From Cyanidioschyzon merolae (taxonomy: Eukaryota): DNA of 64,000 nucleotides. The DNA lies in NCBI GenBank assembly GCA_000091205.1, contig AP006497.2; one strand, 5' to 3'. Within the stretch, counting starts at the first letter, position 1, and each line of letters starts with the position of its first letter. A model generated the notes under the pieces. It had not been told where the DNA came from. It was given only the letters and a program-made list of their open reading frames with translations, and made no database searches. Shown in pieces: positions 1,647 through 61,280 of the stretch. A program made the translations under genes and the position numbers.

Positions 1647-1722
1647 GACAAATGTTTGTGCCGCTTTTGGGGTCTGCCCCTGATCGTTATTAGAACCCCA
1701 CCAGAAGAAACGCATTTTCCCA

Positions 1723-1794
1723 CGGAAGCGGCAGCGAACGCCGTTCAACAGTCGAAAGTCGCCAGCAGTGTACAGTAGTTGCGAATGACCTGCC
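1723..1794 (-). ncRNA. Candidate omegaRNA scaffold / right-end module of element F0
   Basis: Non-coding stretch downstream of the nuclease stop. It contains block 'ctgtacactgctggcgac' and terminal block 'gaacggcgttcgctg', both shared with the other copies. See the findings. Confidence 0.3.
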
Positions 1795-2235
1795 CTAGAC
1801 GAGACACGTCCGAATGACGTGCAGACGCCTCCCAGTATTTTTGGACCGGCCACCGACTACTGGTTCCATTTTTTTCTCATATAATCTAACCTTGAGATGT
1901 TGCCCTGCAAAAATTTCTCTTGTCATCTCTGGAGGCCTCTTGTCCATCACCGCACGTCTCCTGATATTGATAGTGGCATTAAAGTCTCGATTCACAAACT
2001 CCATGCGTTTCCTGCCATTGGTAGTTGTATTCATTAGTGCGAGTAGTCCGCGAATTTTCGCCTTAGTTTCCATTTGCACTTCCGCCAGCGCTTTGTACTT
2101 TTTTACACCCTCAAGGCTCGGCTGACACTGCTCCATCTTGACCTTCTGGAGCGTACACCACAGCTCGTGGCGTATGTTGGATGTTCGGAACTCATATATC
2201 GGTATTGTGACGAAACATCGTGCGCATTCCTTGTA
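1723..2235 (-). pseudogene. 3' fragment of a TnpB/Fanzor-like RuvC nuclease element (copy F0). C-terminal about 145 aa plus the conserved 3' non-coding module.
   Basis: Minus-frame translation: ...AYKECARCFVTIPIYEFRTSNIRHELWCTLQKVKMEQC...GRKRMEFVNRDFNATINIRRRAVMDKRPPEMTREIFAGQHLKVRLYEKKMEPVVGGRSKNTGRRLHVIRTCLV*. This is homologous to the C-termini of copies at 8.5, 18.3 and 39.1 kb. A stop sits immediately upstream at about 2235, so the copy is 5'-truncated. CxxC..H..C..C zinc-finger residues are retained. Confidence 0.7.
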
Positions 2236-2889: not shown

Positions 2890-3662
2890 GAGTTGGTTTA
2901 GCGCTTGCGTTCGAGCTTTTTGTCGATTCCATCGGGAAGCAGACCTGCTTTTTATTCTTCCTTGCACTCCGTGATTCAAGCCCATCACAGACGTGTTTTC
3001 TATCGTGAAACGTAATGATCGCTGCACTGGGCGAATCGCTGAAGCGTTCTGCACAATCACGTCGGAGCATATATCGTCGTTTTTCAGCAAGTCTTTCTCC
3101 CTCCGGGCAGGTCGTCGACTACGGGCATTCAGAAGTACGTGCATTTGTCGAAATAGAAAATCCATGCGAAAAGTATGGACATGAAAGTTAGGGATCCCGG
3201 AGGGTCGTCATTGCCAGGCGCCGGAAAAATGGATATATTGCTCTCCTCGTCGACCAGTGAGCGAAGAAGAGCAAGCGAAGATGATGACGAAGAAGAAGAG
3301 AATAGATAGGCGAGAAAAGATGGATGCCCGACGAGACGCTGGCGATTCTTTATTAGCACTGACGGCGCGAGTTCTAGCAATCCTGGCAATCGTGCGTTCA
3401 ACCGTCGACGATGCTCGCATGTAGCTCGTGAACCGAGACTTCACTGTCACCATCAATATCAGACGATGCGCGGTGCAGGAAACGATACCCGAGGAGCTAT
3501 GACGATCCAACTTCGTAGGGCATGCGCTCAGGCTCGACGCGTGCCTGGATACACTGAAGCTGCCAGCAGGTGGCTGGTCAGAAAAAATGGGAGGCTTCTG
3601 CACGCGGGCACCAGTTTAACCTCCATGGGCGCGAAATGCCTATCGTTTTACTGACTACAGAC
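2890..3662 (+). mobile_element. Internally deleted (non-autonomous) derivative of the Fanzor-like element (F0b). 5' leader segment is joined directly to the 3' about 350 bp including the RuvC-III remnant.
   Basis: 2890-3167 is homologous to 16060-16329 (leader of copy FA). 3168-3290 matches the FA start ('atggacatgaaagttagggatcc' vs 'atgcacgtgcaagtcggggatcc') up to 'cgacgagacgctggcga'. It then jumps to the sequence encoding ..LVNRDFTVTINIRRCAVQETIPEEL* and the 3' module ending about 3662. Confidence 0.6.
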
Positions 3663-4541
3663 GTTCATTCTCGAGCTCGCTCGTACGGCCACCAGCAACT
3701 AGTATACTGTGTTAAGAAGCATGCACAGTGAAATTCCGCAAAAGCTGAGCAGTCACCTGCATGCTGTTCTGATCTGGTAGGCTCGTACGCCATTTGGAAC
3801 GTTGGAGTCGTTTGCTTGTGCCTCCTTCGCGAACGAGCGATGCGGCGTCCGGAACCTTGGCCAAAACGCGTTCCAATACATTATTTCGAAAAGCTGGGCG
3901 TGAGACGCGAGTCAGGACGAAACGGCAATGCGCGCTCAAAGTATGGAAGACTCGATAGAGTCGACCTATCGAAAACAGCTGAGAACCCGAGGATACCAGT
4001 CGAACTTCAACGGTCTTGGACGAAGTTCACAGCCTCAGCACTTGAAATGCCATCCAAATCGCATCAAAACTTGAATATTGTTATTCGGGAGCAAATCGCG
4101 TCTCCGCGCTGGCCTGCCAGGGTTACGCCTCCGATGCCGTTCAGGTAGCCTTCATTGGAACTGGTTGTCTCCCAATGAGCCGTCTCGCTCGGCGGACCGC
4201 TCCCGCAGGCAATGTGCGTTTCCATTCAAAGTCAATCACATGCATCAAGCGTTCCAGGCGCTGCTCATTCGCCTGCACGGGACACTCGCAGGGCAACACG
4301 CTCTGCAGGCACAAGACACTAGTACGATATGCGCGTCCTTCGCAGATCAGCTCCATAGATTGTGGAACCCAAACGACGCTCCACATTCACCCAAGGACGA
4401 GAGAGCGCCCGCCCCGCAGAGCGATGGGATCCGCACGCGGCTCCGGTGCGCAGCCGCTGCCACGCGTCGTTATCGGGAGGCCTCTTCCGACTGACGGCAT
4501 CAGGTCATCACACGCTCATACAATGCTCAATCTCCAACCGG

Positions 4542-6167
4542 CTACGGGGAAAAGCTCTGGAAGAAGGAAATCGAAAAACCCTCGTCAAACCGGTCGCCAT
4601 CGCCACGTCGCAGAATACGTGCCCAGTTGACTTCAAACCGACCGAGGCTCGTACAGCAGGCGAGTCCAAGACCCGCTGACATGCGCCAACTCTGGCGCCA
4701 CGCGACAGCGTCCGACCATTCCCGACAGTCACCTATTGCACAGAACGTGTGGAACTGTAAGCCGAGGGAGCGTGCCACTGCACTGGTAACGATCGGGACG
4801 CCTAGATGTAAACCTAGTTTGTAGTAGACATCTCCACCGATGCTGTCTCCATCGGCGCTGGGCCCTAGGCCCCGATTCCGGAAGCCTCGGAATGCATTCG
4901 CACTGCCGCCGACGAAAAATCGATCGCAGATCCTCGTCTGACGCAACGCATGCCGGGGGCCGGCACGGTGCTCGCTTTTCCGGTCTTTCATCGCAGCGAG
5001 CGCTTGGTGGAAGGGAATGATCATTCCCCCCTGGAAGCCAACTGAGAACACGATAGGAGGCATCAGACGCTCGGGTGGTGACGGGGCAGCGTCACCAGCT
5101 GCAAGTGAATCGTCCACATTGCGCACGAGTTCGCTGCCGTCGGCTCCCGTCAGTGGCACATTCCACTGCCACGAGAGCTCGCTTCGAATAAATCTCGTTG
5201 CGGGATCGCCACCGAGTCCCGCTAGTTCACAGTTCCACTGAGCATTCGTACCCTGACGAGGCGCCAGCGGATCGTCGCGACCATCCCGGGTCCAGGTGTA
5301 TTTGAATGAGCTCTTCACTGAGTGCCCAGCTTGTTCACGAACCCTGATGCTTGCGTGCGGTGCGACTTGCCCCAGCTCGCGCCAGCTGCACTCATAAGCG
5401 AAACGTCCGAACCGCGTCTGGAGGCCGGCTTCAAAGCTGCGCTGAAACTCACTATACGAACTTGTGTCCATGCGATTCAGCAGGGCGCTCTCGGCACTTG
5501 CCGTCGCCAATGCGTCCAGTAACCCCCAGGGATGTGGTTTTCGCCAACCGCAAACAAGATGATTCGTGGCTGTTTGTTTTGCAAATAGGTAGCGGTTCGG
5601 GTGCACCAGTGCAGCGAGGCTACTCAAACTCGAGAGCGCGAATCCGGACCCGCCGACGCCCGCACCAAGTTGGCAATGCAAAGCATCTCCCGTCCCAGTA
5701 AAGTTTATGAAGCCTCCATCAAGCTCGAGAGCGGTCTCGCCGGTGCGCGTATCGGTAGAGGTCCCAATACGGAGTGAAAAAGGTGGCGCCTCACGCACAG
5801 TAACGAGTGCATCGCAGGGCACAGACTCTGCAGTTGGCTCACCGTTCGCAGGGACCGCCGATTCATCGATGAGAATGTCCACTGCACGGAAACACTCGGT
5901 CAGACGGAGTCGCTCGGTTGCGAGTGACGCTCGTTCGAGGAGCTCCTCGAGTGTCAACGAGCGGCGGCTAGACTCAGGAGGCAACGAGTCTCGGTTCTGC
6001 TCCTCCGACAAAGATGCATCTAGGAGGCTCTGGACAAAGTCGATGCGAGTTCGTTCGACGCCGCGAATAATGACCCGCCGCAGACGAACTGTTTCACGCA
6101 AGATGTCGCGAACTGGTGCTTCAAGATTTTGCGCTGAGGCAGTAGCTTGCTCAGATCCGGAAACCAT
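4542..6167 (-). CDS. Sam50/Tob55 (Omp85 family) mitochondrial outer-membrane beta-barrel assembly protein
   Basis: 560-aa ORF. It has a POTRA-like N-terminus (RLRRVIIRGVERTRIDFVQSLLD), an Omp85-type 'DRFFVGGSANAFRGFRNRGLGPS' motif and a beta-strand-rich C-terminus. The track start at 6224 is GTG; the first ATG is at 6167. Confidence 0.7.
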   Translation of the reverse strand: MVSGSEQATASAQNLEAPVRDILRETVRLRRVIIRGVERTRIDFVQSLLDASLSEEQNRDSLPPESSRRSLTLEELLERASLATERLRLTECFRAVDILIDESAVPANGEPTAESVPCDALVTVREAPPFSLRIGTSTDTRTGETALELDGGFINFTGTGDALHCQLGAGVGGSGFALSSLSSLAALVHPNRYLFAKQTATNHLVCGWRKPHPWGLLDALATASAESALLNRMDTSSYSEFQRSFEAGLQTRFGRFAYECSWRELGQVAPHASIRVREQAGHSVKSSFKYTWTRDGRDDPLAPRQGTNAQWNCELAGLGGDPATRFIRSELSWQWNVPLTGADGSELVRNVDDSLAAGDAAPSPPERLMPPIVFSVGFQGGMIIPFHQALAAMKDRKSEHRAGPRHALRQTRICDRFFVGGSANAFRGFRNRGLGPSADGDSIGGDVYYKLGLHLGVPIVTSAVARSLGLQFHTFCAIGDCREWSDAVAWRQSWRMSAGLGLACCTSLGRFEVNWARILRRGDGDRFDEGFSISFFQSFSP

Positions 6168-6446
6168 CCGCGGGTGCGTACCAGTGCAGCGCTCCTTGAA
6201 GAAAGCTGCCGATTTCTCCACCACACACTGGAGACGTAGACCTCAGACAGTCGAGGTCGATCGCAGCTGCCGAGCCTTTGCAAAACCTGTCCACGGTGTA
6301 AGCAGACACGTCGTCCCCAAAAGTCTGCACCAGCGCAACGCCACATTGGTTCGGGCGAGCGCTTCCGCTGCCGAGGGCGATCCTGCGGGCCTGCCTGCAC
6401 AGCCGCTCGATGAGTGCATTGTCGCCCGTTCGGCGTTCTGGATCGA

Positions 6447-6650: not shown

Positions 6651-6918
6651 GTCGAAGAAAGGGACCGATTGCCCGTGCGCTTTTGTCCATGCGCACAGTC
6701 CCTGGAAGGCGGAGTGCGTTGATGATGGAGGTCCTTTTTGGATGCGTCCCCCAGATATCCCGCTGTTCAGACTCAAAAGGGTGACAGTCCTATTGAAAAG
6801 GTTCTCGTGCATCATGCCGCTCGCTAGTTTCGTCCCGGACAGCAAGGATAACCCCTAAAAGAGCTACAGACCACGGCGACGAGCTCGATGAACAAGAGTC
6901 TGCTCGTTCGGCGGCTGA

Positions 6919-6921
<3 letters not shown>

Positions 6922-6957
<36 letters not shown>
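6922..6957. repeat. (CAG)n microsatellite
   Basis: 12 perfect CAG units. Confidence 0.9.
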
Positions 6958-7085
6958 CGTTGCGCTGTCACGATCGAATTCGTGACATCACCGCCGCGCT
7001 TCACGGACGGCACACATCGCGCACCATCTACGAGCACATCTGTTTTCGCGCTGTACGCTCTTGAAGAGCAAAAACCAGGTGGCAT

Positions 7086-8547: not shown

Positions 8548-10919
8548 GCTTCGGGCGCCGTGGCAAAAGTGCAAACCCCTGGAAACAAACGTCTTTCAAA
8601 AGAAAAACGATGCAGCCTGCGGTATACAGAAATGGCGCGCAGCGCGCCCGAGTCAGAACGTCTCCAGCTGACGTGCAGTCGCCTCCCCGTCTTTTTGGAC
8701 CGGCAACCTACTACTGATTCCAACTTTTTTTCATATAATTCCACTTTGGGAGGTTTTCCAACAACGTTCTCTCTTGTCAACTCTGGAGGTCTTTTCTCGA
8801 GCACCGCACATCTCCTTATATTGATGGCGGCGTTAAAGTCTCGGTTCGCAAACTCCATACGTTTCTTGCCATCATTGGTTGTACTTACTGATGCAAGCAA
8901 TCCTCGAACTTTCGCTCTCCTTTCCATTTGCTCTTCCGTCAGCGCTCCGTACTTTTTCGTATCCTCAGGGCTCCGCTAGCACTTTTCCATCTCCACCCTC
9001 TGAAGTGTACACCCCAGTTCATGGTGTGTATACGATGTTCGAAACTCATCCATTGGTATCGTAACGAAACGCCTCGCGCACTCCTTGTACGTTCTTGTCG
9101 TTGGAGCTGGAGTAGTCCCTTTTTGGGTCTTCCAGCGCCCTGCTCCGTACCCTGCTACGAGCCTCTGACTTTTATCCTCCTTCAGGGCACTCAACTGATT
9201 GAAAAAACTCTCGAACGCACGCTGCTTACCACACTATAGATTCATTCGCAAACGAGCCCACCGGGGCTTGGTATACTCCTCCCACAATGCATTCCAATGA
9301 GCAACGCGAACTTCCATGAATTTCCGAAAAGCTTTAAAGTCCGCTCCTCGGCTCGTCACCTCGCTCACAGCTTCCAGGTGCTCGTTCATTCCTGCATTCC
9401 ATTTCTCGATTTTCTTCCTCGTATTCATGATTCCCGATTCTCGATGGTATCTCGCTCTCGAGAACCTCAAAAGACGCATATCTTTCTGATGCAAGGTACC
9501 GTCAGTACCATCTTCCCCACGCTTCGGTGCTGCGATGGTTATGATACTTGTGTTTCCAGCGTCCGCGCCAACGACAAAGTCGTTCTCGTGCATCTTCTGT
9601 GTCGCAGGACCCGCCTTCTTCTCATCTTCATGGTTCTCCGAGGGCGGAACGGGCCGATCCACACTCAACCGCCGATAGTGTATGCACCTGGCTACTCCAT
9701 CGGTTTCGATCATCCCAGTGAATACCTTTTGTCTGCTTACTTTCAGACGTTTGAAATCGAAGATACTCTTCCGGGGCATCTCCCGGTTTTCGTCGGTGAA
9801 CTCCTCCCTGCGAACATCGAACTCCGGACAGATCTCCTTCAAGATGCCATGAAGGATTCTCGAGTCCATAGTCACAAAATGTGACTTGATATTGCAAATT
9901 GGAACCATGTTGAAGCGCTTCCCCATTAGGGCCGACTTCCGCCTCTCCCACTCTTTATTTGTCTCCTCACTCAGCTTCCTCTCTGCCTGGCGTTCGAGTT
10001 CTCGGTCCAGAACCACAGAATAGCGCAGGACGAGGCGATAGTATCTTTCCTTAACTTTTTTTCAACTCTGATATCTTTTCTGTTGGATTCGCCAGCTCCA
10101 AGACTGCACGGTGCTCTTGTATTACGGCACGGATGACGGAGTCCTCATTCATGCTCTGGTTTGACGCCTTCTTGTCGACGAATTCGATCTCATCTTCATG
10201 CTTACGATCGTTCGTGGTGCCATTGAGGTCCGCCTATACTCCATTGCGAGAGATGCGCGGGTAGCGTGCAAACACGGCACGTATCATGAAACGTTCGAGG
10301 TTCATTGTCAAATGGTTCTTCAGATTCGTGAGGTATTTCATGGCCCCATAGTCCTAAATATCCCGGTCACCCCTATACCGAGTACCCTCGAAGCGGAATT
10401 CCGGGAAGGTTTCGTGGAGGACATGCACTGCTCATTTTCCCTCCGCGCTTTCGCTGTACCAAGCATCAGGTGACGAATAAACGTCGTGTCGAAGAATTCT
10501 TCCGGAATCTCGACTGTTTCCATGTGCGTCACGTCGCGATACATCTCCTTCACCAAATGCATCAGTCCTATAGAGTCCATACGAACCCTCGTGAAGTACG
10601 AATCAACATAATTTCTGATGGCCTCTCGCAGATTTTGCTTGTGCGGATCCTGAATATGGCCTAGATGGCATGATTTCTTTACAATCTTGAAGTAGGGTCG
10701 TCTTTCGAGTTGCATTTGGCGCCGGGCCCCCCCTTGTTTTGCGTCATCGTCGTGTCTTGTTTCTCTTCGGTCGGTATTCTTTTTCGCTTTTTCCGCTAGC
10801 CGGCGACGCTGCCCCTCCAGGATCCTCCACTTCCTTTTCCATAACTTTCCTCTTTTATTTTTTTGTAACGCACTTTGAACGCTTCTGCTATAAACCGCGA
10901 AAAAAACACGAGAATACAC
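8493..10919 (-). pseudogene. TnpB/Fanzor-like RuvC nuclease, disrupted (copy F1)
   Basis: Basic N-terminus (KRGKLWKRKWRILEGQRRRLAEKAKK, NLS-like). 10020-10340 has no open frame. The ancestral stop is lost, so the last piece reads through into the 3' module. The CxxC zinc-finger pairs are degenerate. Confidence 0.65.
8575..8640 (-). ncRNA. Candidate omegaRNA scaffold / right-end module of F1
   Basis: Minus-strand 'ctgtataccgcaggctgcatcgtttttcttttgaaagacgtttgtttccaggggt' shares a 35-nt block with copy FA at 18579-18613. Confidence 0.3.
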
Positions 10920-12450
10920 TTGTTTGAGGTTTGAGACACAAATGAACGGAAAAACTGTACTTTGCTACAACTTTAACGCAAGTACAACTTTTATATTAGA
11001 GCAGCACGCTATTGATCAGGATCGCGTTTCCCTTCAGCTGCGGGATGCGCGTCGTGACTCGAAAACTAACAGATCTCCCTGGTGCGCAAATCGATAGCGC
11101 TATGTAGAACAAAGAACAGAGACTCACGACTAGCGAGCAACGATACAGCAATTTCTCTCCCGTTCTACGATAAACGTTGAAAACGGGGAAAAGGTTCCCA
11201 TATTCTGAAGAGTCCTCCCTCTAGGCGAAAAGTCCCGCGAGCCGGACGAGTCTCCCGGACTCGTGCTTCGTGCTCCACCCAGTAGCGGGCGCTGTGGCGA
11301 GACCTGAGCAGTTCGTCCGCAACGCGGTTCATTCTGGGACTAGATGCGGGATGCTGTGTTTGGTCGTCGCCCTGATCGCAGTAGACTCCTAATATATCGG
11401 TTCGCGCTTTCGCAGGCAGTAGTTCTGTCTGTTTAGCCTACAGGCTCCCAGAATTATTCTGGACTCCAACGCTGTATCAGGTAAAGCGTTCCTCAATCCG
11501 TCGCCCTCAGTGGTATGGCAACGCTGTTCTATCTCCATGATGCATCCGTCCCAGTGGTATAGGCGCTAAGGCGGGTGCCCAAAGCAGGCACTCGGTCGCA
11601 CTACAGAACGCACAAAACGATCTGTACATCCGAAAGGAAGTATAAGGAACGGAGCATGGAGGTAGAGTGCATCATGATGGACACTTTTTCGATCAGCTAT
11701 ACCCATCCATCTCGCTATCTGGAATCCAAGTACAATGTAAACGTTTTGTCATTGGAGAGAAATCAGCGGCAACAGCAAATGCAGCGGATTTTGTTCCATG
11801 TGAAAACTTCTCACACAGGCGAGCGTGCCGCGACTCTGTGTGCTTGCTACCTGCGCGCGGTGAAACTTTCGTCGTTCCACGCTTTACGTCCGAGTTTCAT
11901 AACCCATACTTCTTCTCGGATGTACTGGCGTTTCAGACGTACTATCGGGCGCCGAGTGCCTGCCCGTGAACATCCGCCTCAATAGCGCTTGTAGCGCCGG
12001 TGCTGTCGTAGCACAGAAACAGAACGGCGTTGCCGTACCGCAGACGGCGTCTGCTCGAGGCATGCTTCACCTGACGTAGAACTGGGTCTCGTTGTCAGGT
12101 TGTGCTCGGACAGCCTGCGGATGCAAAACTTGCTTTCGCTGCACAACACATTGGAGAAACTTGGCTGTTACGATGAATCCTGGGAGCCGCCTCTCTCCTG
12201 CGTGATCGTACATGGAAAGCGTCGCCCTCGGTTGGCGACTCGGGTCTGTGCTTGGCACCCACCAGTGAGTAGGTACGCGTAACACTGGTCCCGTGTGCGC
12301 ATCTGGTTTGCTGGACCTTCCACCTAGAAGGTAGAGTATGAGTTCGCTGACCACTGGTGAGTGCTGGAGCTCAGTTACGGGACCATCAGTTGCTAGCACT
12401 ACACTCAAAGTAAGTGGCTGGCCTTCATTTACCACAGTGATTCCCAGATG
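8575..12450 (-). mobile_element. Full-length but decayed Fanzor/TnpB-like element (copy F1): about 1 kb 5' leader with internal inverted repeat, nuclease coding region in four ORF pieces, 3' module
   Basis: ORF pieces 10919-10338, 10016-9234, 9194-8976 and 8927-8493 align in order to the copy FA/FB proteins. RuvC-I is [15 protein letters not shown] and RuvC-III is NRDFNAAINIRR. The leader at 10930-12000 is homologous base-for-base (indel-rich) to 35.9-37.06 kb. Inverted-repeat arms are about 11300-11640 and 11905-12230. The 5' boundary is approximate. Confidence 0.65.
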
Positions 12451-14668: not shown

Positions 14669-16539
14669 GGCAAAAACGCAACTCGTGAACGTCCCCCGGC
14701 TGCTGGGTTTTCCTCTCGCAACAAGCTCGACTCGAAAGGCAGCGAGATGTCTACCGAAACATTCCAAGCGTTTTACGGATCAGTGCGCCCTCAGCAGCGC
14801 CGTGCGGAAAAGCGCTCTGAACGATTGGATGGGATCCAGATGCCTATGCTGCAGGGTATTTCCTGTGAATGCAGAGCACTCGTTTCCGGTTTCTATGTTG
14901 CCGTCGCATGCACAGGTGTAAGCGGACAGTGAATTGACCTCTTGCGCTGCACTCGTGAAATGTCGAGCACGAATTCATCCATGTCAAACTGAAATGGTAT
15001 TTGCCGCAAGCTTCCCATGAAGAGGCATTTGCTGGTCGCATTTGGACTTTGGAAGCGATGCTGAAGACAAGTTCATCGCCGCGAACTCGCGTTGGAGCGG
15101 GATGCTTTGGCATTTCGCGACTGCAAAGCAACGTTCAGTGAGTGCTGGTGAGTGCCAGCACGCACATGCCAGCACCATGCCCTGAACAGACCCAGAAAAC
15201 GAATCGACGCGAATGTTTAGCTGCTTTTTCACCAGATGTGTCATATTGGCATCTATCGGATGCGTGAACGCTACCATCAAAGAGGCCCGAGGTTTCCGTT
15301 CTTGTAGTCTTTGTACTAAATTCTGTTTCACTTCCGCTGCGATGTCTAGAAGGAGATCGAAATCACAATGCAATGCATAGTGTAGATCGTAGATGATTTG
15401 CATGTAGCATATACATTCATTTCTGAACAGTGCAAGGAAGACTGTATTCCTCGTTTAGGACAGTCATACCACCGTACTCAGATGGTTGGCAAACACTGTA
15501 AGAAAAATGTAGATGCACTCCGTGCCAGAGATCGATATTCATTGAGGTCGCTTGCAGTCGATCTTAGAAAACGATCCGTTGATCACCATTTTCGGAAAGC
15601 AACAGCGACGATAATAGCCGCCACAGGCGTCACCGTTTCTCAACAGCTTATTCTTATGATCCCGAAAACATTGGGATACAATCTCAAAAAAAGTCATCGT
15701 TCAAGCAAAGGCATCTTCCATCCAAATCGCAACGACAGAGTCCCTGGAACGTCACGATCGATAGGAACCACTGGATCGTCAGTTTGTTTGTTCAGTTGAT
15801 GAAAATTGCTTCAGAAGGCACGCTCGGAGCGTCAATGGGTATTCGAGGTGAAGGGCGCCCGTTGTACGTTCGATCGAGCTCGAAGAGAACGACGAAATCA
15901 TCATCTATTATAGCTTTAGAAGATTTATTTGGCGGCCTCAGTTTCACTTGTAGAAAAGACACATGCAACAGCACCAACCAATTTGTCCAAGCATTGAAGA
16001 CTTTTACCCGACGTCTGGCGACGTCCTTCTATTGGGCAACGTGGCATATCACCATATCGCTTGCGTTCGAGCTTTTTGCCGATTCTATCGGGGTAGGGGT
16101 GATTTTTGTTCGTCTGTGCGCTCCGTGGTTCAAGCGCATTGTAGGAGTGTTTTCTATCGTGAAACGTGATGATCGCTCCCCCGGGCGAAACGCTGAGCGT
16201 TCATCACTCGGTAACACATCGGGGTACATGCCATTTATCTTGCGAAAGCCACGCTCCCTCCGAGAAAGCCCTCATCTAAGGGCAAAAAACGTGCGGTCGT
16301 TTTGACGAAATAAAACTCCAAAACAAAGCTATGCACGTGCAAGTCGGGGATCCTGAAGGGCCCTTGCCGCCGGCTGGCAGAAAAAAACGAAAAATTCTGC
16401 CAATGGAATAGGAACAAAACAGAACGAAGAAGCAAAAGGGCGAGGCCCGACGTCAAAAGCTGCGCGAAAGACGACTATGCGACGAGACGCTGGCGAAAGC
16501 CTGTCTTGGTAACCATATCAAGGATTCGGACAAGCAAAC

Positions 16540-18528
16540 ATGCAACAAGTCATCCGAGACCGTGTCGAGTCGCACTCCATGAGTATTGTAAAGGATTCTT
16601 CAGGACTAATGCCTTTGACGAAGGAGATGAATCGCGGCGTGACGGGCATCAAAACAGTCGAGGTTCCGGGAGAATTTTTCAACACCATCGTTATGCATCA
16701 CCTGATGCTTGGCACAGGGGAAACGTCGAGGAGAAAGGAGCGAATGCATGCCCTCCACAAAATTACCCCGAATACCCTTTTCATCGGTAATCGATACCGG
16801 CGTGACTCGGATATTTACACGTACGGGGCGAAAAAGTACCTCACGAACCTAAAGAACCATATGAACATGAACCTCACACGTTTCATGATACGTTCCGTCT
16901 TCGCGCTGGACCCGTGCCTCTTTCGCAAAGCGATAGACGGGTTACCATCAATGGCATCTCGAACGATAGTAAGAACGAACAGGAGATCGAACTCGTCGAC
17001 AAGAAGACCTCGCACAGGAGCATGAATGAGGCTTCTGTCATCCGCGCGGCTATTCAAGAGCACCGTGCACTCTTGGGGCTCGTTGACCCAGCAGAACAGG
17101 TATCAGAGATGAAAAAGATGGAAAAAGAAAGATGTTACCCACACTTCCTGCGCTATTTCGTGTATTTGGACCAAGAACTCGAACGCAAGGCTGGGATGGA
17201 GCAGGGTGTGCGGAAAAATGCAGAGTCGGTAGAACGGAAGGCTGCGCTTGCGGGTACGCGCTTCGAAGTCGTTCGGTTATGCGAGATCAAGTCGCACTTT
17301 GTGACAATCGACTCCAGAGTCCTTTACGGAATACTGAAGGAGATAAGTTCGGGGCTCGATGTACGCAACAAGGAGTTCACCGGTGAAAATCGGGACACGT
17401 ACTGGACGCATGTCTTCGACGTCAAGCGTCTCAATACGAGCCAGAAAAGGTATTCAGAGGTGTCATCGAAACTAAATGAGTAGCCATGTGTGCACACGAT
17501 CGGCGCTTGAAGGCAGATCGTCATATCGTGCCTTCGGCTTCGCCCGTGACGAAGCATGAAGATGTGAAGCAGGCGGATCCCGCGACGCAGGAGGTTCAGG
17601 ATACTGGCTTTGGCGGCGGCGCGGACCCTGGGATGACGAATATCATAACGATCGCAGCACCGAAGCGTGCGGGAGATGGTGCTGATGGTAACCTGCGTCA
17701 GATAGAAATGCGTCTCTTGAGGTTCTCGAGACCGAGATACTACCGAGAATCCGGTTCAATGAATGCGAGGAAGAAAATCGAGACATGGAATGCAGGAGTC
17801 AAGGATCAGCTGGAAGCTATGAGCGAGGTGACGATCCGACATGCGGACTTTCAAGATCTGCCAGAGTTCATGGACACTCAAGCTGCTCATGTCGAGGAGC
17901 TGCGGAAAGAGTATCGAAAACAAAGGTGCGCTCGTCAGCGTTTGAATCTGTACAGAGAGAACCAGCGTGCATACGCCAACGATTTCAATCCGTTGAGCGC
18001 CTTGAAGGAGGACGAGAGTCAGAGGCTGGTAGAAGCGTATGGGGCAGCGCGCTAGCTGGCCCGAAAAGGGACTACGCCAGCTCCAACGACAAGAACACTC
18101 AAAGAGCGTACACGGCGTTTTGTTACGATACCAATAGGTGAGTTCCGAACATCGTATACACACCATGAAGTGAGGTGCGTACTTCAGAGGGTCGAGATGG
18201 AAACGTGCCAGCGGAGCCAAGAGGATATAAAAAAGTACAGACCGCTGACGGAGGAGCAAATGGGAAGGAGGGCAAAAGTTCGCGGACTCCTTGCATTCGT
18301 GAGTACAACCAATGATGGCAAGAAACGCATGGAGTTTGTGAACCGAGACTTTAACGCCGCAATCAACATCAGAAGATGTGCGCAGCTGGAGAAAAGACCT
18401 CCAGAGTTGACACGAGAGAGAATTTTGTCAGACGACCTCTCAAGGTCGAAGTATACGAGAAAAAGTTGAAACCAGTAGCAGGTGGCCGGTCGAGAAAGTC
18501 GGGAAGGCGTCTGTACGTCGGCGTATAG
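16540..18528 (+). pseudogene. TnpB/Fanzor-like RuvC nuclease, disrupted (copy FA)
   Basis: Pieces 16540-17025, 16914-17483, 17486-18055 and 18170-18469. RuvC-I is GGGADPGMTNIITIA at about 17618-17656. RuvC-III is NRDFNAAINIRR at 18341-18370. An in-frame TAG follows ..EAYGAAR at 18053. A 1-nt frameshift at about 18425 truncates ..PPELTRE. The N-terminus is frameshifted relative to F1. Confidence 0.65.
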
Positions 18529-18613
18529 GCATCCGATCTGCGGCGCGCCGCTCGCCACTCCTGTACCCCTAGCGACAGCGTTTTTCTTGTGAAAGGCGTT
18601 TGTTTCCAGGGGT
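18529..18613 (+). ncRNA. Candidate omegaRNA scaffold / right-end module of FA
   Basis: 'ctcctgtacccctagcgacagcgtttttcttgtgaaaggcgtttgtttccaggggt'. Similarity to the other copies ends exactly after 'ccaggggt' at 18613. Confidence 0.3.
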
Positions 18614-18652
18614 GCCCAGGGGGTCGCTTTAGCCTAGCTTTTGGTCTCGAAA

Positions 18653-20743
18653 ATGCCTCAATGGGACAAGCGCGCCAGACAGCGAAGAAGCAACCAGTCT
18701 CGTTGGCGTCGGGAACCATGGGAGACGCAGGAAGTCGCTTCACCGTTAAGTTGGCTCTGCTTGCCTGCGCGTGTGCTAGCGTGCTTTGGCTCACCTCCGA
18801 GCGAAGAGCTCGCTGAGTCGGCGCAGCCGCCCGACGACATTGTGCCTTGGGAGGACTCCGAAACCGCCGACTCGTCTTCTCAAAGCAGTTTTGGTGGCTC
18901 TGATGAAGGTGCGCGCCAAGAGCTTGCGTGCCGTACGCGAGCGGAGAAAGTGGACGGCAACGGCGCTGGCACCGAGAACGACCAGGATGAGCAACTATCC
19001 GTCGAGCTGGACGCGCTTCGTCGACGTCGCTCCTTCTCGGCCACGAGCTTCCACTTGCCAGCTGTATCCCGTCCAACAGCGGCAGGTAGCATTGTCGACA
19101 TACCGTCAGAGCGTCCACAGACCGCGCAACGCAGAGAACGTCAACGTATCGTGGGCAAGTTGGCGCTCGTTGGGCTCGGTACTCAGCTTCTGCTGCTCAG
19201 CTTGAAGTTGTACAGATTTGAATCGCTCTCACCAGCGTATCTCGTTTTTTCCGTCGCGTTTTTCGTGTTCAGCGGAGGACTTGCTTTCCTGAGTCTCCAC
19301 TACTTTAAAATGGGGCGCCTGCCACCTTTTCTGGATGTGGCTGCAAAACGGCGAGAAGCGTCGCACAACCGTTCGTGTGGGACAAGCCCGGCCCGCTCCA
19401 ACACCGACTCGACGATGCGTACGCTGAGCGGAGCGGGTTCGGCGTTCAGTACTCCAACGGCGGACAGATCGCCATGCACGCCCAAGTCTCGAATTGCCTC
19501 GCGCTCTCGAGAGTACGCTCAAAGCTTCCAAGAAAAAGGCGATGCGCAGGTCGTCAGAACGTCATTTGACTCGCGATCAAACCGACGAATCTTCTCAGTG
19601 CTGGGTGTCGAGAGCTCGCAGTCATTTTGCGAGCAACAGGGGTGCAGTACAAGAATGCCGAGCAAGAGTCGACCGGCAGCGATACGAATCGACGTTACCA
19701 GCGAGCGTACCGCGGCAACATCAGCGAGCGATGACGCAGTTAGTGCGGACAACATCGCCGTGTCCGTCAGAGAGCCGTCCACGCTCTCTGATGCCGATGC
19801 TGATCATACAGAGCATGGTATCGAGAAGCGTCGCGGCACCTTCCGCGAAAAGCCCGGCCAGCGAGGCACGCCCGGTGTTCGCGCTGCTGTTGCCGAAACC
19901 CAGCGACGACATGTGCAGCGGGCGACAGAAACTCGTAGCGCCGGCGCACCGGCCTTGCCGGTACCAGACGCTTCGGACCAGATGAGAGCTGGCGCATCCT
20001 TAGAGCAACGGCGTCGATCCCGCGAGGCATCCTCTCTGTCAGACGACGGAACGCCTCCCGAAGTGCAAATTGAGTCACTGCGTATTGTAGAGAGTTGGGA
20101 GAAGATGCGTATAACAGCAAAGAAGGAAATCTTAGCGGAAGATTTTTGCGAGGGAATGCTCAGTCTATTGAGCGTCATCGATGCATTGGGTCCCGCTTTT
20201 CGAATCATCAAAATCGACATTCGAAATCATGTGAATGGGATCCACCGCAGCTGCACGAAACACAACTGCCGCACCCTGCAGCGCCTCATTGATGCAGAGT
20301 CGAATCGGGTATCACGCTGGTTGAATCCATCGGGCATTGGCGATGGTACGGAACATGTGCTCTGGATGAAACGGGCCATGCAGTTTGTGTACATGCTGTT
20401 GTACATGTTTTTGGATGGCATCGATTTAGACCGGTGTGTATACCATGCATATCGCATGACGCTGCGAGCCTGTCACCCGTACATTGTCCGGAAAGTAGCG
20501 GAGAACCTGCACCGCTTCGTCCCTACCAGAGCTGGCTTTTTGCGCAGAATCCACGCAGATGAGGACTTTGTTTTAACGCAAATGCGGCGATTCTTGAAGG
20601 CAATCGAACCGCGTCTTGATATTATCGTTGAGGTATTCAACGCAAACCAGCTGGAACCGCACTGTCGATTCTCATGCGCAGAATTGCGCCGGCTGGCACA
20701 GCACTGTGCAAAATATGATATCGACGAGGATATGACGCAGTGA
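18653..20743 (+). CDS. Glycolipid transfer protein (GLTP)-domain protein with a disordered N-terminus and a TM segment
   Basis: C-terminal LGPAFRIIKIDIRNHVNGI...RTLQRLIDAESN...HVLWMKRAMQFVYMLLYMFLDG matches the GLTP/ACD11 fold signature. Hydrophobic stretch LALVGLGTQLLLLSL..FFVFSGGLAFLSL. The track start at 18641 is TTG; the ATG is at 18653. Confidence 0.6.
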   Translation: MPQWDKRARQRRSNQSRWRREPWETQEVASPLSWLCLPARVLACFGSPPSEELAESAQPPDDIVPWEDSETADSSSQSSFGGSDEGARQELACRTRAEKVDGNGAGTENDQDEQLSVELDALRRRRSFSATSFHLPAVSRPTAAGSIVDIPSERPQTAQRRERQRIVGKLALVGLGTQLLLLSLKLYRFESLSPAYLVFSVAFFVFSGGLAFLSLHYFKMGRLPPFLDVAAKRREASHNRSCGTSPARSNTDSTMRTLSGAGSAFSTPTADRSPCTPKSRIASRSREYAQSFQEKGDAQVVRTSFDSRSNRRIFSVLGVESSQSFCEQQGCSTRMPSKSRPAAIRIDVTSERTAATSASDDAVSADNIAVSVREPSTLSDADADHTEHGIEKRRGTFREKPGQRGTPGVRAAVAETQRRHVQRATETRSAGAPALPVPDASDQMRAGASLEQRRRSREASSLSDDGTPPEVQIESLRIVESWEKMRITAKKEILAEDFCEGMLSLLSVIDALGPAFRIIKIDIRNHVNGIHRSCTKHNCRTLQRLIDAESNRVSRWLNPSGIGDGTEHVLWMKRAMQFVYMLLYMFLDGIDLDRCVYHAYRMTLRACHPYIVRKVAENLHRFVPTRAGFLRRIHADEDFVLTQMRRFLKAIEPRLDIIVEVFNANQLEPHCRFSCAELRRLAQHCAKYDIDEDMTQ

Positions 20744-21959: not shown

Positions 21960-22340
21960 CTCCGATTACGCGCATTTTTCTTTTCTTACTTTTTTTGTGT
22001 TTTTTTTTCAGTGCGCGGTGAGGTATCCACCAAATCCCCTACTTCCATGTTACATTACCTGCACTTCGTCTCGGATATTCTGGTCGTTTCATACGTCCTA
22101 TCGTGTGTGCCTAGTACCTGCCGAAAGCGACAGCAATAGCGCCTACAGCGCCAGTGCGGTCGCTGCACGGAGACAGAGCGGCGTTGCCGTAACACAAAGG
22201 GCGGCGGCTCGAGGCGTGGCTCACCCGACGTAGAATCGGGTCTCGTCGTCAGTTTGTGCTCGGAGAGTCTGCGGATGCAGGCTTGTCTTCGCAGCACGAC
22301 ACGCTGGAGAAACTTGGCTGTTAGGATATATCCTGGGAAC
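21960..22340 (+). repeat. Solo fragment of the Fanzor-element 5' leader (one inverted-repeat arm plus simple-sequence spacer)
   Basis: 22040-22340 is homologous to 11890-12220 and to 36285-36600. A T-rich tract at 21975-22010 sits where the other copies carry CAG/CAA repeats. Confidence 0.55.
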
Positions 22341-35299: not shown

Positions 35300-38200
35300 T
35301 AGATTTTTTTAGGATTGTCGATCGTGGTTTCGGAGTGGCTCCTGCGACGCCATGCCGCTGGTTTTCGTGATGCCGCTACGATCCGCATGATTCGTGACGC
35401 TTTTGCGGACGATTCCGGAAATAAATGATACCATGATTCCAGTTCACATGCACAAGCTTCTATGCTCCTCCGTTCCTTGCATATAGCATGCTTGGATCAT
35501 GCATTGTTTACGTTTTTGATCTCTCCGTTTCAACGCAACTCGCGCCGCTGAATCGACGACGAAAAGAGCTCGACGAAACCCCGTGAAGACCGCGTCACAA
35601 GATCGTACCACAAATTCACTAAACTTTTCATTCCAAATAATAAGTTCAATTCAAAAGATAAATCCTCCTCTAATTGCGGTCATCAACGAAGCTGCATTCG
35701 ACAACAGCGGCGGCATGATGCCTGTCACAGGAGGTGCTCCCCGAGGCTTCCGCTTTCTCTGTGAGGAAAATGGTAATGGACCCGGCCATGGGTCATCACA
35801 GGGATCGCTACTGATAGAGCGCGCGTCGACATATAAAGCGCGAAGCGAGCGTAGACGGATCGAAAGTTTTGGAGTTGATCTCCAGCCTGGGTTGCCGTCT
35901 TGGTGCCTGATTCATCATGGACGGTAACATCGCGTCCCAAACAGCCTCGATCTTGGAAAGCAGCGTGCGCTTGCACGACCAGCGGACAGGGTACTCACCG
36001 AGGATCTCGCGCAGAGGAAACCCGTAATCGTCGGGTACAGCACAACGCGCTGCATCAAAGGGAGGCATCTTGCAGCGCCCTGCGTACCGGTCAAGCGGTT
36101 GTACTGAGCGGTGAAGCGAGCGCTGACGAGCGATAAGCGGCGGTTCCTCAGCAGCAGCAGCAGCGATACTGACTTTTTCGATGACAAAACGTTTACATGG
36201 GCTATGGATCTCAGATTGCGGGATGGATATCGGTAATTGAACATGCGCCCATCATGAAGCATCTACATGAAAGATCCATCACCTGTACTTGCTCTCGGAT
36301 ATACTGGTCGTTTCGTGCGTTCTAGCGTGTGCCGAGTGCCTGTTTGGAGCACCCGCCATGCGCTTAGACCGGTGGGGCTGATGCATCACAGCGGCAAAAC
36401 AGCTTTGCCCTGCCAGCGAGGGCGTCGACTCGAGGTGTGATTCACTATTCACAGGATCGGAATTGGTGATCATTTTGGGAGCCTGCAAGCTGCGCAGACA
36501 GACGTACTTTATGCAGCGGCGCCAAGCGATATTCGAGAAGTCCACGACGACCAGGGCGACGCCTAGACGCAGGCTATGCGCTCCTAGTCCCAGAATAAAC
36601 TGCGATGCGGACGAGCTGCTCAGGTCTCACGAAACCACCTGCAACTGGGGCGAGCACGAAGCGCGAGCCCGAGACACTCGTCCGGCTCTCAGGACCTTCC
36701 GCCTAGAGGATAAACTTTAGACAGTACGGAAACCTCTCCCGCTTTTAACTTTATATCGTTGCTAGTTAGGAGTGAGCCTCCGTTCTTTGTTCCGTATTGC
36801 GCGCTCGACACGCCCACCTCCATACTTGGCTGGCTGGCATGAAACACGACGTGCATCTCGCCGATGAAGAGAAACGCGATCGCGATCATTCGTTGACTTG
36901 GTGCTCTAACAGACAAGTTGCGTTTGCGCAAAAGTCCTAGAAAAGTATAGTTTTCATTTCAATCGCGTTTCAACCCTCAGTTTAGTGTACGCAGGTGATT
37001 TTTCGCGGTTTACACCAGAAGCGTTCAAAATGGGTTCATGTTCAAGAAAATATAGGAAAGTGATGCACGTGCAAGTCGGGGATCCTGAAGGGCCCTTGCC
37101 GCCGGCTGGCGGAAAAAAACGAAAAACTTTGCCAATGGAATAGGAACAAAACAGAACGAAGAAGCAAAAGGGCGAGGCCCGACGTCAAAAGCTGCGCGAA
37201 AGACGACTATGCGACGAGACGCTGGCGAAAGCCTGTCTTGGTAACCATATCAAGGATTCGGACGAGCAAACATGCAACAAGTCATCCGAGACCGTGTCGA
37301 GTCGTACTCCATGAGTATTGTAAAGGATTCTTCAGGACTAATGCACTTGACGAAGGAGATGAATCGCGGCGTGACGGGCATCAAAACAGTCGAGGTTCCG
37401 GGAGAATTTTTCAACATCATCGTTATGCATCACCTGATGCTCGGCACAGGGGAAACGTCGAGGAGAAAGGAGCGAATGCATGCCCTCCACAAAATTACCC
37501 CGAATACCCTTTTCATCGGTACTCGATACCGGCGTGACTCGGATATTTACACGTACGGGGCGAAAAAGTACCTCACGAACCTAAAGAACCATATGAACAT
37601 GAACCTCACACGTTTCATGATACGTTCCGTCTTTGCGCTGGACCCGTGCCTCTTTCGCAAAGCGATAGACGGGTCACCATCAATGGCATCTCGAACGATA
37701 GTAAGAACGAACAGGAGATCGAACTCGTCGACAAGAAGACCTCGCACAGGAGCATGAATGAGGCTTCTGTCATCCGCGCGGCTATTCAAGAGCACCGTGC
37801 ACTCTTGGGGCTCGTTGACCCAGCAGAACAGGTATCAGAGGTGGAAAAAGATGGAAAAAGAAAGATGTTACCCACACGTCCTGCGCTATTTCGTGTATTT
37901 GGACCAAGAACTCGAACGCAAGGCTGGGATGGAGCAGGGTGTGGGGAAAAATGCAGAGTCGGTAGAACGGAAGGCTGCGCTTGCGGGTACGCGCTTCGAA
38001 GTCGTTCGGTTATGCGAGATCAAGTCGCACTTTGTGACAATCGACTCCAGAGTCCTTTACGGAATACTGAAGGAGATAAGTTCGGGGCTCGATGTACGCA
38101 ACAAGGAGTTCACCGGTGAAAATCGGGACACGTACTGGACGCATGTCTTCGACGGCAAGCGTCTCAATACGAGCCAGAAAAGGTATTCAGAGGTGTCATC

Positions 38201-39349
38201 GAAACTGAATGAGTAGCCATGTGTGTACACGATCGGCGCTTGAAGGCAGATCGTCATATCGTGCCTTCGGCTTCGCCCGTGACGAAGCATGAAGATGAGA
38301 AGCAGGCGGATCCCGCGACGCAGGAGGTTCAGGATACTGGCTTTGGCGGCGGCGCGGACCCTGCGATAACGAAGATCATAACGATCGCAGCACCGAAGCG
38401 TGCGGGAGATGGTGCTGATGGTAACCTGCGTCAGATAGACATGCGTCTCTTGAGGTTCTCGAGACCGAGATACTACCGAGAATCCGGTACAATGAATGCG
38501 AGGAAGAAAATCGAGACATGGAATGCAGGAGTCAAGGATCAGCTGGAAGCTATGAGCAAGGTGACGATCCGACATGCGGACTTTCAAGATCTGCCAGAGT
38601 TCATGGACACTCAAGCTGCTCATGTCGAGGAGCTGCGGAAAGAGTATCGAAAACAAAGGTGCGCTCGTCAGCGTTTGAATCTGTACAGAGAGAACCAGCG
38701 TGCATACGCCAACGATTTCAATCCGTTGAGCGCCTTGAAGGAGGACGAGCGTCAGAGGCTGGTAGAAGCGTATGGGGCAGGGCGCTAGCTGGCCCGAAAA
38801 GGGACTACGCCAGCTCCAACGACAAGAACACTCAAAGAGTGTACACGGCGTTTTGTTACGATACCAATAGGTGAGTTCCGAACATCGTATACACACCATG
38901 AAGTGAGGTGCGTACTTCAGAGGGTCGAGATGGAAACGTGCCAGCGGAGCCAAGAGGATATAAAAAAGTACAGACCGCTGACGGAGGAGCAAATGGGAAG
39001 GAGGGCAAAAGTTCGCGGACTCCTTGCATTCGTGAGTACAACCAGTGATGGCAAGAAACGCATGGAGTTTGTGAACCGAGACTTTAACGCCGCAATCAAC
39101 ATCAGAAGATGTGCGCAGCTGGAGAAAAGACCTCCAGAGTTGACACGAGAGAGAATTTTGTCAGACGACCTCTCAAGGTCGAAGTATACAAGAAAAAGTT
39201 GAAACCAGTAGCAGGTGGCCGGTCCGAAGAAAACTGGGACGCGTCTGCACCTCAGTTCGGGACGTCTTGTCAAGGGCGCTGTCGTCGCCACGTCTGTATA
39301 CTGGCGGCGGCGACGTTTGTTTTTCGAGAAGCGTTCGCTGGTATCAGCC
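35300..39349 (+). mobile_element. Fanzor/TnpB-like element copy FB: leader with about 300-bp inverted-repeat arms (about 35590-36020 and 36285-36720) and a CAG spacer, nuclease region, 3' module
   Basis: The leader at 35.9-37.06 kb aligns along its length with the F1 leader. The core 37064-39232 is about 98% identical to FA. The 3' module ends in 'gcgttcgctggtatcagcc' (39331-39349), a variant shared with F0. The 5' boundary is approximate. Confidence 0.65.
37272..39203 (+). pseudogene. TnpB/Fanzor-like RuvC nuclease, disrupted (copy FB)
   Basis: Same ORF pieces and same lesions as FA: stop after ..EAYGAGR at about 38786, and a frameshift near 39160. RuvC-I is GGGADPAITKIITIA. RuvC-III is NRDFNAAINIRR. 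Confidence 0.65.
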
Positions 39350-39388
39350 GTGGTCGCGCGTGTTTATTCGGTCTTCGACAGGCGCGAC

Positions 39389-47754: not shown

Positions 47755-47815
47755 CAGCAGCACAGCAGCAGCACAGCAGCAGCGGCAGCAGCAGCAGCAG
47801 CAGCAGCAACAGTAG
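47755..47815. repeat. (CAG)n imperfect microsatellite
   Basis: cagcagcagcacagcagcagcggcagcagcagcagcagcagcaacag. Confidence 0.85.
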
Positions 47816-47911
47816 CAGTGGACGTCCACACGAACGGCACCTGGGATCGTACCCGAGGCATCGCCCGGTGGACAAGCCGGTGGTGCAACGCGTCCCTGCT
47901 GCTCTGTGGAT

Positions 47912-60963: not shown

Positions 60964-61280
60964 CGTCGCAAAACGGCGCCAGAGTCCGCATCCAATAGCG
61001 GAACGGAGTCAATGTACTCTGGAATCGTTCAAGCTGCTAAGTTTCTCCATCGCTTGGTGCCCGTCGCAAAACGGCGCCAGAGTCCGCATCCAATAGCGGA
61101 ACGGAGTCAATGTACTCTGGAATCGTTCAAGCTGCTAAGTTTCTCCATCGCTTGGTGCCCGTCGCAAAACGGCGCCAGAGTCCGCATCCAATAGCGGAAC
61201 GGAGTCAAGGTACTCTGGAATCGTTCAAGCTGCTAAGTTTCTCCATCGCTTGGTGCCGCGCCGGCGAGTCCGCATGCACA
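60964..61280. repeat. 98-bp minisatellite, about 3.2 tandem copies
   Basis: The unit 'cgtcgcaaaacggcgccagagtccgcatccaatagcggaacggagtcaatgtactctggaatcgttcaagctgctaagtttctccatcgcttggtgcc' starts at 60964, 61062 and 61160, with a partial fourth copy. The overlapping ORFs are artefacts. Confidence 0.85.

Follow-up and report, generated by a model that had tools for sequence, protein, structure and literature searches.

The window, a stretch of DNA of 64,000 nucleotides, contains four to five copies of one element, as seen in a self-comparison. The four main copies are called FA, FB, F1 and F0, and a fragmentary fifth is called F0b (Table 1). FB matches FA over 37057 to ~39350 (+) with 96.6% identity, and F1 over 10848-8575 (-) with 75% identity. 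An earlier note had flagged 85 bases at the 3′ end of FA (18529-18613) as a conserved non-coding module, a candidate omegaRNA scaffold and the right end of an element. What was flagged is the right-end module of a Fanzor1 transposon in a decayed state.

The nuclease of the element was identified with a profile of 11 homologues, which matched the Parasitella parasitica Fanzor1 PpFz1 (9CF0; E 2.6e-9) and the Spizellomyces punctatus Fanzor1 SpuFz1 (8GKH; E 9.7e-9) in alignments spanning the three RuvC D/E/D motifs. As these two were the only significant matches of the profile, the nuclease was assigned to Fanzor1. The stitched nuclease gave nothing significant in Pfam or in single-sequence searches (phmmer, PDB); its 49 homologues are all metagenomic. 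Both the homologues and the stitched window copies show the RuvC motifs GADPG, DEFRTS and NRDFNAAINI, which can still be recognized in the FA pseudogene, where DEF is changed to GEF and the second motif reads (G)EFRTS. Three-frame translation of FA, FB, F1 and F0 required several frame changes in each copy, so that no intact ORF is left, and the frameshifts are identical between FA and FB. The homologous proteins examined look truncated or fragmentary as well, P0001 ending before the consensus C-terminus. The four window copies, FA especially, are decayed relics of the system.

Judged by sequence, this is a Fanzor1 in a eukaryotic host, a Cyanidiales red alga. The host ORF at 4542-6224 (-) encodes a protein of the Omp85 family, which is 67% identical to a protein of Cyanidiococcus yangmingshanensis and 40% identical to that of Cyanidium caldarium, and GRAM/VASt genes adjoin one Fanzor copy. 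Long uninterrupted host ORFs, for example 18641-20743 and 4542-6224, suggest an intron-poor eukaryote with a GC content of ~55%. CAG/GCA trinucleotide runs lie inside long ORFs (6902-6966, 47756-47820 and others), and a 98-bp unit is present in three head-to-tail copies of 99-100% identity at window positions 60964-61257.

Table 1. Positions of the Fanzor1 element copies, their 3′ modules and an associated repeat in the window.
Feature	Position	Strand	Basis or remark
FA, Fanzor1 element copy (part common to FB and F1)	16325..18613	+	self-BLAST, repeats, upstream comparison
FA Fanzor1 pseudogene, multiple frame breaks, premature TAG 18526-18528	16540..18528	+	three-frame translation, profile
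FA 3′ module, candidate omegaRNA scaffold, degenerate	18504..18613	+	alignment with 52 copies; MFE -45.8 kcal/mol, z -2.37
FA S1, 5′ strand	18504-18512	+	3′ partner decayed
FA S2 core, GGCG..loop..CGCC	18542..18556	+	alignment, folds
Linker box, consensus CTACTGTAC, FA CTCCTGTAC	18558..18566	+	columns at least 90% conserved
FA S3, terminal hairpin	18565..18613	+	fold; window z -3.28
FA S3, 5′ strand	18565-18586	+	
FA S3, loop TTGT	18587-18590	+	
FA S3, 3′ strand	18591-18613	+	
3′ flank next to the right end, putative guide segment by analogy	18614..18630	+	similarity to other copies ends at 18613
F1 pseudogene copy	8575..11102	-	left end ~11102, right end 8575; self-BLAST, R1 48.4 bits
F1 3′ module	8575-8685	-	
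F1 S3	8575-8624	-	
FB pseudogene copy	36797..39353	+	left end ~36797; self-BLAST, R1 57 bits
FB 3′ module	39238-39353	+	right end somewhere from 39338 to 39353
F0, only the 3′ part survives	1720..2233	-	self-BLAST, R1 82.3 bits
F0 3′ module	1720-1831	-	consensus stop TAG intact in GTCTAGGGCAGG (1789-1800)
F0b, fragmentary fifth copy, FA-like 5′ region and RuvC-III fragment	2899..3609	+	repeats, self-BLAST
~660-bp repeat	~11110-11780	-	fits the description of TE-N2_CMe
~660-bp repeat	~36181-36796	+	fits the description of TE-N2_CMe
~660-bp repeat	22039-22338		fits the description of TE-N2_CMe

One metagenome scan with the C-terminal protein alignment as query yielded 80 loci, the window's own loci included (L003 and L004 correspond to FA, L002 to FB, L017 and L036 to F1). 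After identical loci had been merged, 57 distinct copies from hot-spring metagenomes were left. Alignment of the 3′ regions of all copies revealed a module common to all, followed by unrelated sequence. Pairwise similarity stopped at extract positions 180-195 in most of the 57 copies, at 189 in FA, and in nearly all of them it was lost within ~15 nt of the same point. Since similarity ends near one point and the flanks beyond are unrelated, the site marks a genuine end of the element. As the right end of a Fanzor-type element, which the earlier note had placed here, it is well established.

The 35-nt terminal block that had been described as shared by FA and F1 was found in exactly two places in the window, FA 18579-18613 (+) and F1 8575-8609 (-), and in none of 100 shuffles of the window. 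Both occurrences are identical in 33 of 35 positions, the mismatches being the two ambiguous positions only. Identity between FA and F1 amounts to 83.6% in the last 180 coding nucleotides, drops to 68.9% in the next ~100 nt and rises to 94.3% in the terminal 35 nt, so the patchy conservation is real. Similarity between the two copies breaks off after CCAGGGGT, in agreement with the previous statement that it ends after 'ccaggggt'. The terminus ..TTCCAGGGGT occurs in four independent copies with differing flanks, namely FA, F1 and the metagenome copies L067 and L081:709-808, the latter two likewise with unrelated flanks. Most copies terminate in ...GGTG. A second variant of the terminal block had been noticed in FB and F0, where it is indeed present as ..GAGAAGCGTTCGCTGG and ..GAACGGCGTTCGCTGCC.

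The full module measures ~105 nt and is made up of the last ~37 nt of the ORF, whose consensus end is ...GRRLHVSWRRLV followed by the stop, and of ~70 nt of non-coding sequence. It thereby reaches from the last 12 codons up to the boundary that recurs in 57 copies, and it consists of three stems. In S1, which lies within the last 12 codons, GAGGCGTCT pairs with AGACGTCTY. S2 has the form TAG-GGCG...CGCC-A-CTA and holds the consensus stop codon inside the stem, where TAG pairs with the CTA of CCACTAC. S3 is a long hairpin that follows a conserved CTGTA linker, starts with CAC(C) and ends with (G)GTG, the last bases of the element. S1, S2 and S3 were recovered by single-sequence MFE folding in most copies and by RNAalifold on the model-based alignment.

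The closure of S3 in FA is formed by ACCCCT (18565-18570) pairing with AGGGGT (18608-18613). The upstream block and the terminal block, previously taken for separate elements of conservation, therefore belong together as the 5′ and 3′ strands of a single long hairpin at the terminus. Likewise, the two variants of the terminal block both exist, but they represent alternative versions of the S3 inner stem, CGTTCGA-CTT-TCGAACG and CGTTTTTC-TTKT-GAAAGRCG. These are at least six substitutions and a register shift apart, and each forms a stem of 7-10 bp. Further paired versions of the inner stem are CTAC/TAG (L024 and L018) and GCCGGCGAG/CTCGCCGGC (L013). The divergence between L024 and L018 beyond the inner hairpin had prompted the idea that the tail following this hairpin is flank and not element. 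The idea was rejected: L080, L066 and L070 have a tail of which that of L018 is a variant, and tails pair with the S3 5′ strand, which makes them part of the element.

FA is the most degenerate member of the family. Its orthologues L003 and L004 score 21.6 bits (E=0.01) with the covariance model R1, as compared to 90-117 bits for good copies, and both the S1 partner and the stop-codon stem are decayed. Comparison with the other copies also corrected three details of the previous description. Instead of starting at 18529, the conserved module begins at ~18504. Its location downstream of the nuclease stop applies to FA only, and there because of the premature TAG; in the family the stop sits within the module. 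The consensus stop is the TAG of GTCTAGGGCG, and TAG or TAA is found at this position in 35 of 53 copies, while it is mutated to TGC in FA. The block 'ctgtaYacYg', when taken alone, occurs no more often than by chance (nine matches with at most one mismatch against 7.9 expected), but in its context it is at least 90% conserved in 52 copies. FA reads CTGTACCCCT, which does not match 'ctgtaYacYg'.

The earlier note had proposed to look for compensatory base changes. Model R1 was used to align 53 copies, and the alignment is thus fitted to the model; in it, 82.6% of the cells were paired, compared to 78.9% after shuffling. Both sides were changed in 66 cells as opposed to 28.7 in shuffles, a value reached in none of 500 shuffles, and controls in which the partners were slid by 1-3 columns gave 27-44 such cells. 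Nearly all of this covariation is located in S3. In S1 and S2 of the 53 copies, changes affect a single side of the stem if they occur at all, and coding also constrains S1. Among the 21 most similar 'short-form' copies, which represent the commonest hairpin class, covariation was not above shuffles. For this reason covariation is not claimed for S1 and S2, and the signal stems largely from a few class-level replacements. The proposal that conservation reflects constraint on RNA structure is supported for S3 with its compensatory and register-shifting changes, whereas S1 and S2 are conserved and show no covariation.

Since the alignment of the 53 copies is fitted to the model, alignment-free tests were added. 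The mean z of the S3 window was -1.77, while the flank gave -0.06 and coding sequence +0.66. Whole-module z was about -5 in well-preserved copies (L068 -5.12, L060 -4.96) and only -0.6 to -2.4 in the four window copies. The best-preserved copies include L068:3885-3986 and L060:2352-2459. Pairing of cognate S3 halves was stronger than that of non-cognate halves (-17.1 versus -14.6 kcal/mol), a result reached by 0 of 5000 permutations; the cognate advantage against dissimilar copies was -4.1 kcal/mol (p 9e-4) and the sense strand folded with -19.1 versus -14.8 kcal/mol for the antisense strand (p 5e-7), p-values which overstate independence because the copies are related. G.U cells far outnumbered A.C cells, by 105:10 in S1 and 150:24 in S3; these counts do not separate an RNA from a DNA reading, because G.T wobbles can form in top-strand ssDNA. 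The excess of G.U cells and the better folding of the sense strand indicate that the structure is sense-strand specific. Folding of S3 persists even between copies with no more than 50-70% identity in this hairpin. An RNA-type structural constraint is supported for the terminal hairpin S3.

RNAalifold on a plain MAFFT alignment of 52 copies returned three invariant pairs only. Such an alignment is unfit for a structure test, since the two hairpin classes set three columns out of register. The 3′ region of the distant homologue P0046 (L082, ~30% identity) is unrelated, gave no R1 match and added no deeper covariation. Rfam produced no gathering-level matches in the window and only chance-level matches on the module, a neutral result, as there was no Fanzor omegaRNA family among the matches.

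At its left end the element opens with the hairpin GCGCTC-GGT-GAGCGC, followed by a second one, CCTG..CAGG or CCTCC..GGAGG. The left-end hairpins were found at 36797-36840 (+), at 11060-11102 (-) and at ~40 loci, both with compensatory variants between subfamilies. The ATG follows only ~260 nt after the left end. Neither TIRs nor recognizable TSDs were detected in the element, and no conserved TAM or target-site motif could be recognized in the sequence 5′ of the left end, where the junction is fuzzy and most copies abut other repeats. A separate repeat of ~660 bp, which contains an inverted repeat, is placed directly 5′ of the left ends of F1, FB and ~15 other copies and also occurs alone. 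An alternative 5′ region that does not resemble the usual left end is common to FA, F0b and L059 (window 16055-16325 and 2899-3345); in FA it reaches at least as far upstream as 16055. Hence the element is modular in its 5′ part, too.

Model R1 also matched two solo modules without a Fanzor ORF (L028:259-365 and L065:395-500). They resemble all Fanzor copies from GGAAGCGTCTGCAC onwards, which is exactly where S1 starts, and up to the usual tail. As the solo copies start exactly at S1, the 105-nt S1-S3 unit is a module of its own. The solo modules sit inside a ~1.1-kb repeat common to L028 and L065. At L063, a divergent Fanzor copy ends at the solo-module junction (.../AGGTTAGGCTCTTGAAAC). A divergent Fanzor subfamily, 64-70% identical in RuvC-III, was found at L063:295-650, L013:~4930-5250(-), L064:5957-6275 and L081:~3890-4203(-). 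Its 3′ region differs, contains ..GGTCGTGA.. and does not match model R1; these copies adjoin standard copies in transposable-element clusters.

Several copies are mosaics. FA 16325-18480 and FB 37057-39213 are 96.6-99% identical, and outside this internal tract the 5′ regions and the terminal ~135 nt show either no relation or not more than 55-64% identity. The pattern points to an internal gene-conversion tract between two elements rather than to transposition or segmental duplication. Two recent pairs, whose members sit at different loci, show swapped 3′ ends. L051:3670-3929 and L070:786-1045 are 97% identical over 700 nt, 97-98.5% through S1-S2 and 50% in S3. L024 and L018 agree completely as far as the inner hairpin, beyond which they carry different tails, each of them typical of the family. 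In addition, hairpin and tail types are interspersed across the coding tree. By this comparison, 3′ ends have clearly been exchanged between copies by recombination. One speculative explanation, to which we give little credence, is that Fanzor triggered double-strand breaks at right-end flanks, which were repaired from non-allelic copies. This would be RNA-guided ectopic homing or gene conversion in a eukaryotic genome, and what is exchanged with the S3/tail cassettes would be the specificity-proximal portion of the guide RNA gene.

Position, size (~105 nt), overlap with 12 codons and architecture of the module fit published Fanzor1 omegaRNAs. We propose that it is probably the omegaRNA scaffold plus the right end of a Fanzor1 transposon. 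In intact copies, the ~37 nt at the end of the ORF and the ~70 nt of non-coding sequence behind them would be transcribed in the sense direction and fold into S1, S2 and S3, the 3′ strand of S3 ending at the element boundary with ...GGTG or ...GGGGT. The resulting ~105-nt fold would be the scaffold bound by the Fanzor1 nuclease, and by analogy with known systems transcription would run ~15-20 nt into the flank, which would then provide the guide. Transcription, processing, protein binding and guide use are what we infer for intact copies. The element itself appears to be of the CMe-1A type, from the same or a sister family, as matched by descriptive features.

It is rather unlikely, in our view, that the module instead serves as a DNA-level transposition signal, in which S3 would be a subterminal top-strand ssDNA hairpin that marks the end of the element and is read by a transposase acting in trans. 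This transposase would be either a rolling-circle enzyme (Helitron2-like) or a 'peel and paste' enzyme acting on ssDNA (IS200/IS605-like). Such a signal would agree with the presence of hairpins at both ends, the left one varying in a compensatory manner, with the distance of ~12-20 nt between the inner 3′ hairpin and the end, as in Helitrons, and with the G.T wobbles open to top-strand ssDNA. Moreover, Fanzor1 genes are known as passengers of Helitron2, which has hairpins at both ends (PMC3627910). However, the ends read ..GGTG or ..GGGGT and not 5′-TC...CTRR-3′, a consistent A|T insertion context is missing, and no gene for RepHel, Y1 or a serine recombinase was seen in any copy. Judged by eye, the left-end terminus and the S3 5′ strand have no more than a weak ATIR-like match. 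A DNA signal leaves the conservation of S1-S2 and the whole 105-nt solo module beginning with S1 unexplained. Because the left end has covarying hairpins and no TIRs, part of the 3′ structure may nevertheless act as a DNA end signal. In IS605 and SpuFz1, end signal and omegaRNA overlap, and the two readings are thus not mutually exclusive.

Improbable is a role of the module as an element in the 3′-UTR of the Fanzor mRNA, acting for example in 3′-end formation, in stability or, at the stop codon, in translation termination, without guide function. Sense-strand specificity, the stop codon in a stem and the location at the 3′ end of the transcript would suit it. On the other hand, the structure stops exactly at the transposon boundary in 57 copies with the last bases in the closing helix, the module persists without the ORF, and homologous nucleases use exactly this region as guide-RNA scaffold (PMC10432273).

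Least of all, and with hardly any likelihood, conservation might come from a read-through coding frame or from mere recent ancestry or gene conversion without function: 12 of 53 copies, F1 and FB included, have the Fanzor frame without a stop in the module, and 3′ ends were exchanged by recombination, but the TAG or TAA at the consensus position in 35 of 53 copies, the S3 length changes that ignore the reading frame, the stops in the other two frames in 16-19 copies, the folding of S3 in copies of 50-70% identity and the 94% identity of FA and F1 in the terminal 35 nt versus 69% in the neighbouring 100 nt all speak against it. A conserved read-through frame had already been named in the earlier note as the competing possibility. 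This coding version is largely refuted and was rejected on account of the consensus-position stop and the frame-breaking changes in S3 length.

Few natural omegaRNAs have been defined. The family offers a predicted scaffold of ~105 nt in a Fanzor1 lineage of thermo-acidophilic red algae. Provided that an intact copy or a reconstructed consensus proves active, the lineage may be a source of heat- and acid-tolerant compact editors. With dozens of diverged copies at hand, a comparative structure test is feasible, and the solo modules and recombinant 3′ ends could show how Fanzor1 elements spread. As for the window itself, the outcome amounts to routine annotation: a transposon type already known is present in four decayed copies, whose right ends are now placed.

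CMe-1A is a Fanzor1-encoding element of Cyanidioschyzon merolae with ~150 copies of ~3 kb and ~80% identity to the consensus (Bao & Jurka 2013, PMC3627910). It has neither TIRs nor TSDs, and its 5′ 635 bp are the separate repeat TE-N2_CMe; the description of 2013 predates omegaRNAs and does not mention a 3′ module (PMC3627910). Compared by description, the element in the window resembles CMe-1A as a Fanzor1 element of ~2.5-3 kb without TIRs or TSDs from a Cyanidioschyzon-type red alga, with an independent repeat of ~635-660 bp directly upstream of many copies. The copies studied here are 68-80% identical to one another, whereas those of CMe-1A are ~80% identical to their consensus (PMC3627910).

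The termini resemble those of Helitron2, known carriers of Fanzor1 genes (PMC3627910), in the lack of TIRs, the hairpins near both ends and the short distance between the 3′ hairpin and the end. In contrast to Helitron2, there is no CTRR 3′ end and no RepHel gene was seen on non-systematic inspection of the loci; in place of a single short hairpin the conserved unit comprises ~105 nt and three stems. As in the TnpB omegaRNA of IS200/IS605 (ISDra2), the scaffold proposed here extends over both the 3′ end of the nuclease gene and the right-end signal, and by analogy the guide would be the flank 3′ of the right end. ISDra2 differs as a prokaryotic element with a TnpA-recognized ssDNA hairpin and a defined TAM/target site, while the protein of the red algal element belongs to the Fanzor1 clade and is not accompanied by TnpA.

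Published Fanzor1 omegaRNAs have lengths of 90 nt (SpuFz1), 75 nt (PpFz1) and 150 nt (GtFz1), and lie between, or extend over, the ORF end and the right end (PMC10432273, PMC11423790). That of GtFz1 overlaps 17 ORF codons, and in the three solved structures a stem-loop SL1 is followed by one to three variable stem-loops (PMC10432273, PMC11423790). The guide of SpuFz1 covers 14-15 nt past the right end (PMC10432273). The module described here has no sequence similarity to the known omegaRNAs, all of its copies look inactive, and the RNA is a prediction from DNA. The S1 stem has 9 bp and SL1 has 7 bp, and the SpuFz1 scaffold spans the 3′ IR, unlike the element in the window, which has no inverted repeats at its ends. 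The shared features are the location at the 3′ end of the nuclease gene up to the right end, the overlap with C-terminal codons (17 in GtFz1, ~12 here), a first stem-loop followed by a variable number of others, and a size of ~105 nt, which falls within the published range. SpuFz1 'ghost loci' carry the omegaRNA region (PMC10432273), and the solo modules found in the metagenomes are comparable to them in that the RNA region is present at non-autonomous loci.
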